Shown piece after piece: positions 15,853 through 63,600 of a DNA stretch of 64,000 nt; position 1 is the stretch's first letter, and the number at the start of each line of letters is the position of its first letter. Origin of the DNA: a virus (Duplodnaviria > Caudoviricetes). The notes under the pieces were generated by a model. That model made no database searches, had not been told where the DNA came from, and saw only the letters and a program-made list of their open reading frames with translations. Both the position numbers and the translations under genes were made by a program. The stretch covers positions 11,824 to 75,823 of IMG/VR virus record IMGVR_UViG_3300031902_000003. One strand, written 5' to 3'.

Positions 15853-16308
15853 ATGACTGAGACTACCAACACTGAGATGACTGAGAAGTTGATGGCGGCT
15901 GGTGAGAAGGCGGAGACCCAGAAGCAGGCTCGCCGGGAGCGAGTTGTTAAGGGGGCTCACCTTCTTCCCCAGCTGAAGGACCTTGCCACTGCGGCTGGCC
16001 TCAATGTCGAGGAGAAGAGCGGCTTCCTGAAGGTTTCTGCCGGTGTAAAGGGCAAGAACGTTTACCTCGCTAAGAAGGGTGGCCGCGTTGATTTGAGCGG
16101 CTTCTCCGTCGAAGCGGCTGCTATCCGTCAGATTTCCGAGCAGGAGGCTCGGGAGAAGCACCTCGGCAAGGTTCGTGGTCAGCTTGACTTCAACCAGTCT
16201 GATGAGCAGGTCCTTGAGGCTTTCACTGCGGCTCTTAAGGAGGTTGCGGTCCGGGCTGAGCCGGCCGAGCCTCTCACCGCTGGTGCTGAGACCGCCGAGG
16301 AAGAGTGA
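15853..16308 (+). CDS. Uncharacterised early protein, paralog 1 of the SGFxKV/RxDLSG family
   Basis: KSGFLKV..KGKNVYLA..RVDLSGF shared with 47020-47547 and 50047-50562; GC-rich codon usage. Confidence 0.75.
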   Translation: MTETTNTEMTEKLMAAGEKAETQKQARRERVVKGAHLLPQLKDLATAAGLNVEEKSGFLKVSAGVKGKNVYLAKKGGRVDLSGFSVEAAAIRQISEQEAREKHLGKVRGQLDFNQSDEQVLEAFTAALKEVAVRAEPAEPLTAGAETAEEE

Positions 16309-16325
16309 ATTAAGAGGTTGCTGTG

Positions 16326-16378
16326 ATGGTGCTCAGGGTTCGGTCCTGACAGACTGTGAAAGCCAGTCCACCATTTTT
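16326..16378 (+). other. Three-way-junction RNA element or branched terminator abutting the tRNA-Lys-like gene
   Basis: ATGGTG/CACCAT closing stem, TCAGG/CCTGA and GACTG/CAGTC hairpins, then TTTT. Confidence 0.45.
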
Positions 16379-16477
16379 GAGTGATCGTATAGCATACTGT
16401 CGGCAGATAGGATGCGTGATGGATAATACTGGTGGCTTTTAACCACTAAATATGAGGTTCGAGCCCTCATTCACTCT
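16379..16477 (+). tRNA. Atypical tRNA-Lys(UUU) with an enlarged (35-nt) D-loop
   Basis: Acceptor GAGTGA/TCACTC, D stem GTAT/ATAC, anticodon arm GGTGG-CTTTTAA-CCACT, T arm ATGAGG-TTCGAGC-CCTCAT. Confidence 0.7.
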
Positions 16478-16491
16478 CTTGGAGGAAGTCA

Positions 16492-16782
16492 ATGAAACCT
16501 AGTAACGAACTCACTCCGGGCGACGCCGCCTGGCTTTTTACGAAGGTTCTTCTGTTTCTTTTTCTTAGTGGCACAGCAATCATGTGTGTTGTTGCAACTG
16601 GAATCTTTGTCGGCGTAGACGCCTATCTCTCTACCAATTCACACACAATTGGAGTTGCATGTGCATTCTGTGTTTGGCTAGCCGGAATGGCTGGTCGTGA
16701 GTGGTTTCATGTTCTTCTTGCTAGACTCTTCTTCTCTATTTCAGATGAGAAGGAAATTGACCGTGTTAGCCGAGGTGAATAA
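16492..16782 (+). CDS. Membrane protein (2 TM)
   Basis: SD GGAGG; two hydrophobic helices. Confidence 0.65.
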   Translation: MKPSNELTPGDAAWLFTKVLLFLFLSGTAIMCVVATGIFVGVDAYLSTNSHTIGVACAFCVWLAGMAGREWFHVLLARLFFSISDEKEIDRVSRGE

Positions 16783-17051
16783 TGGGTGTTGAATTCTACC
16801 CTTGCAAGTCTTGTGGTGAAGTGTTTTGTGATGCTGGAGAATATGCACAGTGTGATTGTGGGTGCGCATTTTGCTCAAAGAAATGTGGTGGTGTTCTTCG
16901 AGATAAGAACGGCGATTGGTCCTGTGCCTTTTGTCGAGGTGAATCAGTTGGCAACTTTGAGCTTGTTGAACATGCTCTTGTTCTTCTTGGTATGTCGTGG
17001 GACCAGCTTAAAGAATCTTATTTGAAGACTCTCGTAAAGGAAAAGCCTTGA
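16782..17051 (+). CDS. Cys-rich zinc-finger protein
   Basis: CKSC, CDCGCAFCSKKC and CAFC. Confidence 0.65.
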   Translation: MGVEFYPCKSCGEVFCDAGEYAQCDCGCAFCSKKCGGVLRDKNGDWSCAFCRGESVGNFELVEHALVLLGMSWDQLKESYLKTLVKEKP

Positions 17052-18283
17052 ACATTGATATCATGGAGAAGGTCGCAGCTGTTGGTTCTCGTCTAGAGAA
17101 AGAAAGACTTCTCGCTCAGCTCGATAAGGAGAGCATCAAGTTTCTTGTCTGGGCGCTCGACCCAATTATCACGTTTGGCGTGACATCAGACTTCAAGAAC
17201 CCTCCGTATGATGGGACTGCCACTCTTCCTCACGATTACTTCTGGGAAGCAATGGATCGTCTTCTTATGGATCTTTCTAAGAGAAAGTTTACTGGCAATG
17301 CAGCTCAGACAAAGATCGAAGTTACATTGCTTCATGCTCCAACTGATCTTGATTTTATCTGGGCTCAGAGGATTATAAACAAGGATCTTCGAGCCGGCTT
17401 CTCAGAGTCTACATTAAACAATGTATTCCCTGGAACCATTGAACCTTTTGCATGTTCATTGGCTAAGCCGTACGATCCTGACAAACATGAACTCAAGGGG
17501 GCCTGGTGTGTCGAACCGAAGCTCGATGGCTTGAGGATGGTGGTATTGGATGGCGTTGCCTACACGAGGAACGGCAGGACTATAGAGACCGTGGGGCACA
17601 TTCTCAAGGATCTTGAAGAGTTTAAGAATGAATATGTCTTCGATGGTGAAATCATGGGTAAGACAGAGTTCAATGAAGACTCTGGTAAGATTCGCAAGAA
17701 GGGAACCGGAGAGAACAAGGATCTTGTTTACAATGTCTTCGACTGCATTCGAAGAGATGAATGGCTTTCCAAGAAGACCAGAAGTCTTGATGATAGGAAG
17801 TCAGACCTTCTCCGCGCGATTGGCTTGAAAGGTATCGGAGAAAACATCAAGCTTGTTGATCACGTTATTATTGACGATGCCACGACAGAGGAACTCTTTA
17901 AAGCTCGTGATAAGTTTATCAAGAAGGGATACGAAGGAGCGATGGTCAAGCAACTCTCTTCGCCATATGTCTTCAAGCGTTCAGACTCTCTTCTGAAGTT
18001 GAAGACTGTTCTTGATGCAGACGGAGTCATCGTCTCTGCATTCGAGGGTAAGGGAAGACTTAAGGGAAAGCTCGGTGGGTTCTCTGTAAACTTTGATGGA
18101 GTTGTTACAGATGTTGGCTCTGGGTTCTCAGATGCGACTCGAGCAGAATTCTGGGCAGATAGAAAAGAAATGATCGGTAGAGTTATTGAAGTCAAGTATC
18201 AGGAGAAGGCTCCATCTGGAGCTCTTAGGTTTCCTGTCTATATCAAAATGCGCCCGGACCGGGACGAAAGGAAGAACGTATGA
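17048..18283 (+). CDS. ATP-dependent DNA ligase
   Basis: Motif I EPKLDGLR, FDGEI, VFDCI, YEGAMVK, LLKLK; OB-fold VGSGFS and LRFPVY; TTG start. Confidence 0.95.
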   Translation: MNIDIMEKVAAVGSRLEKERLLAQLDKESIKFLVWALDPIITFGVTSDFKNPPYDGTATLPHDYFWEAMDRLLMDLSKRKFTGNAAQTKIEVTLLHAPTDLDFIWAQRIINKDLRAGFSESTLNNVFPGTIEPFACSLAKPYDPDKHELKGAWCVEPKLDGLRMVVLDGVAYTRNGRTIETVGHILKDLEEFKNEYVFDGEIMGKTEFNEDSGKIRKKGTGENKDLVYNVFDCIRRDEWLSKKTRSLDDRKSDLLRAIGLKGIGENIKLVDHVIIDDATTEELFKARDKFIKKGYEGAMVKQLSSPYVFKRSDSLLKLKTVLDADGVIVSAFEGKGRLKGKLGGFSVNFDGVVTDVGSGFSDATRAEFWADRKEMIGRVIEVKYQEKAPSGALRFPVYIKMRPDRDERKNV

Positions 18284-49113: not shown

Positions 49114-49154
49114 AGAGCCGGTCTGGAGTCGAACCAGACATGTTCCGACGGCCC
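49114..49154 (-). ncRNA. Anticodon-less tRNA-like minihelix A
   Basis: GGGCCG-TCGGAACAT-GTCTGG-TTCGACT-CCAGAC-CGGCTC-T: 6-bp acceptor plus 6-bp T stem with canonical T-loop. Confidence 0.65.
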
Positions 49155-49986: not shown

Positions 49987-50029
49987 TGAGGCGGGGAGGA
50001 GTCGAACCTCCCGATGTTCCAGGCGCCTC
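49987..50029 (-). ncRNA. Anticodon-less tRNA-like minihelix B
   Basis: GAGGCG-CCTGGAACATC-GGGAGG-TTCGACT-CCTCCC-CGCCTC-A; same architecture and GGAACAT linker as minihelix A. Confidence 0.65.
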
Positions 50030-62020: not shown

Positions 62021-62091
62021 TGGGGAATCGTCCAATGGTAGGACGACGGTCTTTGACACCGTCTATGTAGGTTCGAATCCTACTTTCCCAT
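62021..62091 (+). tRNA. tRNA-Gln(UUG)
   Basis: TGGGGAA/TTTCCCA, ACGGT-CTTTGAC-ACCGT, GTAGG-TTCGAAT-CCTAC. Confidence 0.93.
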
Positions 62092-62658: not shown

Positions 62659-62746
62659 GGAGTGTACGCTTGCAACGGCAACGCAAGGTCGGTCTTGAAA
62701 ACCGATAGTTCTGAATAAGGGCCGGGTTCGACTCCCCGTCACTCCG
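62659..62746 (+). tRNA. tRNA-Ser(UGA), atypical D arm
   Basis: TCGGT-CTTGAAA-ACCGA, long variable arm, 5-bp D stem CTTGC/GCAAG; mismatches in acceptor and T stems. Confidence 0.75.
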
Positions 62747-62819
62747 CAGGAAAGCTATATAGGGATAGCAAACAGGGGATCTGTTCGGCGGTTCAGGAAC
62801 CCCAACATTTTGAATAAAT

Positions 62820-63021: not shown

Positions 63022-63100
63022 CAAGCCGGTAATGTTAGCTCGCGCCTAACTCTCACCACCATTAATTTTATGGTGAGGTCGTCTAAAGCAGGACACCGGC
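63022..63100 (+). ncRNA. Circularly permuted tRNA-like unit P (3' half precedes 5' half)
   Basis: Acceptor 7/7, D 4/4, anticodon stem 5/5 and T 5/5 pair only in permuted order; encoded CCA at 63059-61. Confidence 0.75.
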
Positions 63101-63108
63101 ACCAGATG

Positions 63109-63216
63109 GAGAAAGACATAGGTTCGATTCCTATAATGATACGTGCTAGCCGAGATTCAGGTCGCACCTGATATGTTAGTGCCGCGACTCATTTAGTTTA
63201 ATGGTAGAACATTCTC
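63109..63216 (+). ncRNA. Circularly permuted tRNA-like unit Q (3' half precedes 5' half)
   Basis: Anticodon stem TTCTC/GAGAA 5/5, D arm GTTT-AATGGTA-GAAC, T arm ATAGG-TTCGATT-CCTAT, acceptor 5/7. Confidence 0.65.
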
Positions 63217-63248: not shown

Positions 63249-63324
63249 GGGGGTGCAGCTCATGTTGCGTCGGAGCAACCGCCTTTTAAGCGGAAGGTCG
63301 TGGGTTCGATTCCCTCCGCCCCCA
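63249..63324 (+). tRNA. tRNA-Lys(UUU)
   Basis: GGGGGTG/CGCCCCC, ACCGC-CTTTTAA-GCGGA; unusual 11-nt D-loop; preceded by TGA-TATAAT promoter. Confidence 0.9.
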
Positions 63325-63409: not shown

Positions 63410-63481
63410 CGTGCGTAACGCTACTGGAGTGGCGATCTCCCTGTCACGGAGACGAGATGGGTTCGATTCCCATACGCATGA
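63410..63481 (+). tRNA. tRNA-Asp(GUC)
   Basis: CGTGCGT/ACGCATG, TCTCC-CTGTCAC-GGAGA, ATGGG-TTCGATT-CCCAT. Confidence 0.85.
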
Positions 63482-63486
63482 AGTTT

Positions 63487-63600
63487 GGGTTGTGTTGATG
63501 GAACTAGTTCTGGGTTCGAGTCCCAGTGTCTCCACTAATATGGGGATAGGAATTGGTCCCTGCCGCGGCAGTGTAACGGGTTCGACTCCCGTACAATCCA
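63487..63600 (+). ncRNA. Strand-swapped double tRNA mimic without anticodon loops; two G3.U70 acceptor helices
   Basis: GGGTTGT/ACAATCC-A and GGGGATA/TGTCTCC-A each pair 7/7 only in swapped register; two perfect T arms. Confidence 0.75.

Follow-up and report, generated by a model that had tools for sequence, protein, structure and literature searches.

A large uncultured phage has a conserved gene of tRNA-Lys(UUU) type with a predicted fifth hairpin arm

We report a phage gene that, judged from its sequence and that of its homologs, is a conserved tRNA-Lys(UUU)-type gene carrying a fifth hairpin arm in its D-loop. It occupies positions 16379-16477 (+ strand) of the stretch of DNA analysed here in its entirety, hereafter the window, which comprises 64,000 nt (positions 11,824-75,823) of the IMG/VR record IMGVR_UViG_3300031902_000003 (Duplodnaviria; Caudoviricetes). 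The pattern of compensatory change among related phages indicates that the element is a real RNA gene under selection, and not the product of decay. We put at about an even chance the further proposal that its product is a working five-armed tRNA, and we weigh this proposal below against a set of alternatives.

The phage in question is large, uncultured and without cultured relatives. The parent record of the window (75.8 kb) was judged 37% complete, its phage genome has a G+C content of 43.7%, and no close DNA relatives of the window were present in the phage collection. The tRNA gene has as its neighbour an ATP-dependent DNA ligase gene (17048-18283, 411 aa), the product of which is at most 34% identical to the ligases of the phage collection and 50-60% identical to the ligases of many metagenomic contigs of 150-200 kb. 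Contigs of up to 163.8 kb carry identical strains, and in contig L002 the whole intergenic region is identical to that of the window.

The tRNA gene sits in a 183-nt gap that separates two + strand ORFs (Table 1). [quoted passage not shown] A second tRNA-Lys(UUU), placed at 63249 by an earlier note made from the letters of the window, was recovered there by tRNA calling as a near-canonical tRNA-Lys(ttt) scoring 51.4 bits (Rfam). Among the window ORFs of at least 150 aa, lysine codons are 78% AAG and 22% AAA, despite the two tRNA-Lys(UUU)-type genes, and AGA is the commonest arginine codon (42%). No synthetase of the Lys/Asp/Asn type or of the Glu/Gln type was found in the 75.8-kb record. We also note, by eye, a tRNA-Asp(GUC)-like sequence at 63411-63479 (acceptor GTGCGTA/TACGCAT, anticodon loop CTGTCAC, T loop TTCGATT), which has an odd D arm and is called by neither ARAGORN nor Rfam, as well as other bodies with a T loop, likewise uncalled, at about 62660-62748, 63040-63135 and 63487-63600.

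Table 1. Predicted features of the gene, its flanks and its homologs (positions are those of the window unless a contig is named; paired and invariant positions refer to the four members).
Feature	Position	Strand	Description
Upstream ORF (anchor gene)	15853-16308	+	151 aa, no family
Y-shaped element	16325-16378	+	stem GATGGTG/CACCATT closing two hairpins, then a U run; abuts the tRNA 5' end; predicted fold
Acceptor 5' strand, GAGTGA	16379-16384	+	6 bp, perfect with TCACTC at 16471-16476; 6/6 pairs changed on both sides (4 homologs)
Linker, U8 and C9	16385-16386	+	U invariant, 4/4 members
D stem 5' strand, GTAT	16387-16390	+	4 bp with ATAC at 16426-16429; 100% of cells paired
D-loop	16391-16425	+	35 nt; ends TGGATA
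Fifth arm, 24-nt hairpin	16392-16415	+	GCAT / A.G mismatch / CTGTC / GGCA loop / GATAG / ATGC
D-loop 3' part, GTGATGGATA	16416-16425	+	G18 G19 at 16421-16422, A21 at 16425; GG and final A invariant (n=4)
D stem 3' strand, ATAC	16426-16429	+	partner of GTAT at 16387-16390
Anticodon arm	16431-16447	+	stem GGTGG/CCACT, loop CTTTTAA, anticodon TTT at 16438-16440; 4/5 stem pairs changed on both sides
Variable loop, AAAT	16448-16451	+	4 nt, ending AU, in every member
T arm	16452-16470	+	6-bp stem ATGAGG (16452-16457)/CCTCAT (16465-16470), loop TTCGAGC
Acceptor 3' strand TCACTC and discriminator T16477	16471-16477	+	no encoded CCA; discriminator U invariant
Downstream ORF	16492-16782	+	96 aa; ATG at 16492
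Homolog in L004	3511-3611		loop CCUUUAA (UUU, C33); A31.C39 mismatch, U1.C72
Homolog in L145	623-723		loop CUUUGAC (UUG, Gln); 6/6 split
Homolog in L250	2116-2216		loop CUUUUAA (UUU); U1.U72

Architecture and annotation of the gene

The acceptor and T stems together form a branch of 12 stacked bp, divided 6+6 rather than 7+5; if a 7/5 split is forced, T16385 comes to lie opposite T16470. The earlier note had described this 6-bp acceptor and 6-bp T stem, the T.T at 7/66, the 35-nt D-loop with its TGGATA, and the intact anticodon and T arms, and all of these are found in the sequence. Its account of the hairpin within the D-loop stands for the outer helix, GCAT/ATGC, whereas the inner pairing that it had drawn, CTG/CAG around TCGG, gives way to CTGTC/GATAG around GGCA, which is the form that the homologs keep. 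The minimum-energy fold of 16379-16478 is the five-helix structure (-31.9 kcal/mol, z -2.71), and 1 of 200 shuffled sequences folded as well.

Standard annotation gives a different gene at this locus. According to both ARAGORN and Infernal the gene starts within the insert, at 16406, and is a 73-nt tRNA (16406-16478) with a 5/7 acceptor. On the strength of this agreement one could take the gene to be a 73-nt tRNA-Lys with a decayed acceptor, a pseudogene or partial duplication for which the upstream complement would be fortuitous. The call scores 25.3 bits, however, under the Rfam RF00005 gathering cutoff of 29 bits; the 73-nt form folds no better than its shuffles (z -0.04), with the acceptor not formed; across the homologs that acceptor is paired in 53.6% of cells, much as in slid controls; and ARAGORN reports no tRNA in L004, L145 or L250, three related contigs in which the five-armed fold persists. 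We conclude that the boundaries of the 73-nt call are wrong for the gene, and we find the decayed-tRNA reading hardly credible. RF00005 run at its gathering threshold gave no match at 16379-16477.

Homologs, compensatory change and neighbouring structures

Relatives were located by using the upstream gene of about 150 aa as an anchor, the product of which is 72-75% identical in L004 and L042. Three more members of the element were found in related metagenomic phages (L004, L145 and L250), each directly downstream of the anchor gene, and the insertion that the earlier note had proposed to seek in related phages is present in all three. They share the 6/6 split, a D-loop of 35-36 nt and the hairpin plan of the window gene. 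The split is complete in the window and in L145; in L004 and L250 it consists of five pairs and a mismatched 1.72 pair together with a 6-bp T stem, the acceptor and T stem adding up to 12 positions in every member. With the window sequence as its only input, a covariance model finds the L004 member at 53.7 bits (E 2e-9), aligned from end to end through the insert, and a two-sequence model finds those of L145 (79.5 bits) and L250 (87.7 bits), both at full length through the insert. Folded individually, the L004 and L250 sequences adopt the five-helix shape, and the minimum-energy fold of L145 contains all of it but the D stem.

These four distinct sequences (the window, L004, L145 and L250) were fitted to the model in an alignment termed A10. 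Standard pairing is seen in 96.7% of its cells, and of the 30 pairs 21 have changed on both sides. When the alignment was slid, 2-3 pairs were changed on both sides, and none of 500 shuffles reached the observed values; four sequences make a small sample, but they exceed the controls by a wide margin. Changes on both sides are distributed over the acceptor (6/6), the fifth arm (6/9), the anticodon stem (4/5), the T stem (4/6) and the D stem (1/4), where one pair occurs as A-U, C-G and G-C across the members; RNAalifold, run independently, predicts the five-helix structure. The T stem has 6 bp in all four members, with 100% of cells paired and 4 pairs changed on both sides. The fifth arm has 9 bp in all four, with 97.2% of cells paired; it keeps an invariant closing G-C, one invariant G.U, a purine.purine mismatch and a GGCR loop. 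The pairing CGU/AUG, which competes with the D stem in the single-sequence minimum-energy folds, is formed in 72.7% of cells and displays zero compensatory change. The retention of the insert hairpin and of the four cloverleaf helices through compensatory change argues for a functional RNA, and the invariant G.U of the extra arm points to a + strand RNA as opposed to a palindrome in the DNA. The earlier note had named random decay in homologs as the outcome that would speak against its proposal; the opposite is seen, all helices being kept with compensatory changes.

Conservation extends to single nucleotides. Across the four sequences U8, G10, G18 G19, A21, C32, U34, U35 and A37 are invariant, as are G53-C61, the T-loop positions U54 U55 C56 R57 A58 and the discriminator U, and the universal tRNA nucleotides, including U33 and purine 37, are kept with the sole exception of C33 in L004. 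The anticodon stem differs in sequence in every member, but the loop is kept, which argues for selection on the loop. In L145 the loop is CUUUGAC, which a tRNA-Gln encoded in the window itself (62021-62091) has letter for letter, and this identity makes the change of anticodon look adaptive rather than a product of decay.

The distribution of the gene is patchy. Equally close relatives (L142, L146, L120 and L121) are without it: L142 and L146 keep just the structured element that lies upstream, and L120 and L121 have no gap. The tree of the anchor protein is an unresolved star in which the holders of the gene are not resolved as one clade. Models R1 and R2, run over 119 ligase-anchored loci, gave no additional copy bearing the insertion; an exact tRNA pattern and a single-protein ligase scan in IMG/VR gave nothing; and with three degenerate patterns all matches in IMG/VR were either chance ones or clusters of ordinary tRNAs. 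In the genome collection a degenerate pattern produced 99 matches against an estimated 78 or so expected, with 0 confirmed by the model. Model R3 identified only ordinary tRNAs in two related viral records, ordinary tRNAs and the single known copy in the window's whole record, and only ordinary tRNAs in 81 Solirubrobacterales genomes (including the unpublished G039 and G060), the one 97-nt match there being a tRNA-Val with flanking sequence; a pattern search of the same 81 genomes gave chance-like matches.

Other structured sequences occur in and around this locus. The Y-shaped element that abuts the tRNA was flagged as terminator-like by a scan of the region. L042, L142, L146 and L250 share the second of its hairpins (CAGNCYG ... 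CRGNC), which is conserved with some compensatory change. The element is found at 1835-1933 in L042, 1930-2023 in L142, 1943-2033 in L146, and in tandem at 2006-2054 and 2062-2115 in L250. It lies after the anchor gene and ahead of the tRNA or, in contigs lacking the tRNA, right before the next ribosome binding site, and it is often followed by a U run. L042 (1934-2041) and L143 (990-1097) are closely similar contigs that have a different tRNA-like RNA at the same site. Its acceptor has 7-8 bp and its T stem 5 bp (loop TTCAAGT), its D-loop of 41 nt contains a hairpin of another kind, and its anticodon arm is closed off as a GUAG tetraloop hairpin with no anticodon; model R3 gives it just 17.7 bits. 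The two 6+6 minihelices of the window to which the earlier note referred (49114-49154 and 49987-50029, - strand) are weak matches to the model of the five-armed tRNA (16.0 and 17.3 bits), with only their acceptor and T arms aligned. An anticodon-less minihelix of acceptor and T arm also precedes the five-armed tRNA of L004 (3428-3460, T loop TTCGATT, -21.7 kcal/mol, z -3.18), and a similar T-arm element lies downstream of the anchor gene in L141.

Candidate roles for the element

Should the gene encode a working tRNA, we would expect it to be transcribed on the + strand jointly with the flanking genes, freed at its 5' end by RNase P (at G16379) and at its 3' end by trimming, and supplied with its CCA by the host enzyme. 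The molecule would fold into the L typical of tRNAs, its extra arm protruding from the core, and would be charged and decode lysine codons, while the L145 scaffold, with its UUG, would decode glutamine codons. EF-Tu reads a 12-bp acceptor branch (PMC5389517), and the 6/6 split of all members implies that the 12 branch positions measured by EF-Tu and by processing enzymes are retained. The extra arm and the shifted junction would most likely alter which proteins handle the molecule; it may, for example, be cut poorly by a host nuclease whose target is ordinary tRNA-Lys, and back up the canonical tRNA-Lys at 63249 as a protected spare. The architecture described here may change recognition by tRNA-targeting defence nucleases, of which AriB has been reported to touch the D-loop in addition to the anticodon stem.

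Several features count against a working tRNA. L004 has C33 and A31.C39, the first pair is mismatched in both L004 (U.C) and L250 (U.U), and equally close relatives do without the gene. Besides this gene the phage has a near-canonical tRNA-Lys(UUU), and AAA makes up just 22% of the lysine codons in the window. The discriminator is U; the Lys and Gln tRNAs of E. coli carry A73 or G73 at this position. At the same site L042 and L143 carry a tRNA-like RNA that lacks an anticodon loop, and the known members amount to only four distinct sequences.

The main rival to a working tRNA is a mimic that does not decode, a decoy, sponge or cofactor that would bind a protein through its UUU/UUG loop or its extra arm and act outside translation; conceivable partners are an anticodon nuclease of the host, a synthetase and a protein of the phage. 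We regard this as possible but doubtful. The extra arm has features resembling those of a ligand (the GGCR loop, the invariant G.U and the purine.purine mismatch), 1.72 is mismatched in two members, L004 has C33, and a canonical tRNA-Lys coexists in the phage, all of which would suit such a molecule. The same can be said of the anticodon-less 6+6 minihelices in the same genome, weak matches to the model though they are, and of the tRNA-like RNA with a D-loop hairpin that L042 and L143 carry at the same site, the anticodon arm of which is sealed into a tetraloop hairpin. The 7/5 split and the different hairpin of L042 detract from this last comparison, since on account of them it may not be an ortholog. 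A further point against a mimic is that in three of the four members the 7-nt anticodon loop is perfectly canonical, its stem has 5 bp and the acceptor branch is complete at 12 bp; a branch of the size that EF-Tu takes would be superfluous in a decoy directed at an anticodon nuclease, and no candidate partner protein was found. We think it unlikely that the element acts in cis, its tRNA shape being a cutting signal for RNase P and RNase Z or a 5' structure that keeps the upstream message apart from the downstream one and fixes where the latter begins or how it is translated. Its position, which is constant in that the same gene precedes it and the next ORF follows, is in keeping with such a role, as are the distance of its 3' end from the Shine-Dalgarno sequence (3-7 nt in the window, L004 and L250) or from the ATG (2 nt in L145), the want of room for a promoter of its own beyond the weak 9/12 match within the element, and the conserved structured element with a U run that precedes the tRNA. 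Yet a processing signal has no need of a conserved anticodon loop, of a swap to a Gln-type loop or of a fifth arm; a minihelix of the kind present elsewhere in the genome would suffice, and close relatives carry the same pair of genes without the tRNA.

The earlier note had itself offered three readings: a non-canonically placed intron, an armoured nuclease-resistant tRNA, or a decoy. They are partly supported, in that the element is a functional RNA for which armour and decoy are both still candidates; the intron reading is not supported. Excision of exactly 16392-16415 and joining of the halves would leave an 11-nt D-loop of normal size, which is the attraction of reading the gene as an intron-containing pre-tRNA. 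The bulge-helix-bulge motif is absent, however, the insert being an unbroken helix of 10 bp that is capped by a tetraloop and contains one 1x1 mismatch of purines, and the sole 3x3 internal loop belongs to the alternative pairing that is not conserved; the insert is also far too small for a group I intron. Conservation of the GGCR loop, the G.U pair and the mismatch would be unexpected in a spacer, and the 6/6 split would persist after splicing. The RtcB, tRNA-intron endonuclease and RNA ligase families (PF01139, PF01974 and PF09414) are absent from the 75.8-kb record, itself 37% complete. An intron is thus unlikely, and we would assign it a very small probability. An attP site with a 3' fragment of a host tRNA was likewise considered and rejected: the neighbouring gene encodes an ATP-dependent DNA ligase, not an integrase, and the 5' strand covaries with the 3' strand.

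To return to the working five-armed tRNA, a broader and more speculative form of the proposal would be that five-armed tRNAs with a D-loop hairpin recur as a class not described so far and linked to the three split-box anticodons whose U34 is xm5s2U, of which UUU and UUG are represented here. In phages they would be nuclease-proof spares that are still charged and still decode: where the ordinary tRNAs for Lys, Gln and Glu fall to anticodon nucleases, or to other defences directed at tRNAs, these would be shielded by the arm and the 6/6 junction. We consider this generalization unlikely.

Comparison with known tRNAs and significance

With canonical tRNA-Lys(UUU) (RF00005) the gene shares the cloverleaf, U8, the elbow formed by G18G19 and the T loop, the anticodon loop CUUUUAA and a 12-bp acceptor/T branch, and, like it, the phage's other tRNAs are without an encoded CCA. 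The canonical molecule divides its branch 7+5 and has a D-loop of about 7-11 nt without a helix, whereas here the division is 6+6 and the D-loop has 35-36 nt with a 24-nt hairpin; the 4-nt variable loop, the discriminator U and a Rfam score below the cutoff also set the gene apart. The closest precedents for a displaced boundary are the allo-tRNAs, with 8/4 and 9/3 branches, and tRNA-Sec, with 8/5 and 9/4, some of which are phage-borne (PMC5389517; PMC7609411). As in the five-armed gene, a branch of 12-13 bp is kept in these molecules and the boundary between acceptor and T stem has moved. They differ from it in that they have a longer acceptor, a shorter T stem and long variable arms, while the five-armed gene has a shorter acceptor, a longer T stem and an added arm in the D-loop. 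Neither of the two papers (PMC5389517; PMC7609411) mentions a 6/6 split or a D-loop hairpin, and a full-text literature search turned up neither a D-loop helix nor a 6/6 split in any tRNA. As predicted from these sequences, the five-armed 6+6 design therefore appears to be a variant for which no published description was found.

A second comparison may be made with phage tRNAs that evade host defences. The tRNA-Lys of T5 escapes AriB of the PARIS system, and the known escapers differ by point changes in the anticodon stem-loop (PMC10264068; PMC11555353; 10.1101/2025.02.04.636281). Like these, the five-armed gene is of a phage tRNA-Lys(UUU) type that would stand beside the host supply and belongs to the class targeted by anticodon nucleases. 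In contrast to the PARIS escapers it has a standard anticodon loop and its change is one of architecture; a link to PrrC or PARIS is conjectural.

The finding bears on annotation as well as on biology. ARAGORN gave the window gene the wrong bounds and missed its three relatives, which exposes a blind spot in the annotation of tRNAs. The four-armed cloverleaf with its 7/5 branch is among the most constant shapes in biology, and processing enzymes, EF-Tu and the ribosome are built around it. If the gene described here is a true tRNA, it would widen the known tolerance of the translation machinery, all universal contacts being kept while an arm is added and a boundary shifted, and such a molecule might also offer a scaffold for orthogonal tRNAs. 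If its architecture protects it from defences that cut tRNAs, phages would have a new route of escape, one that works through shape and not through point mutation.
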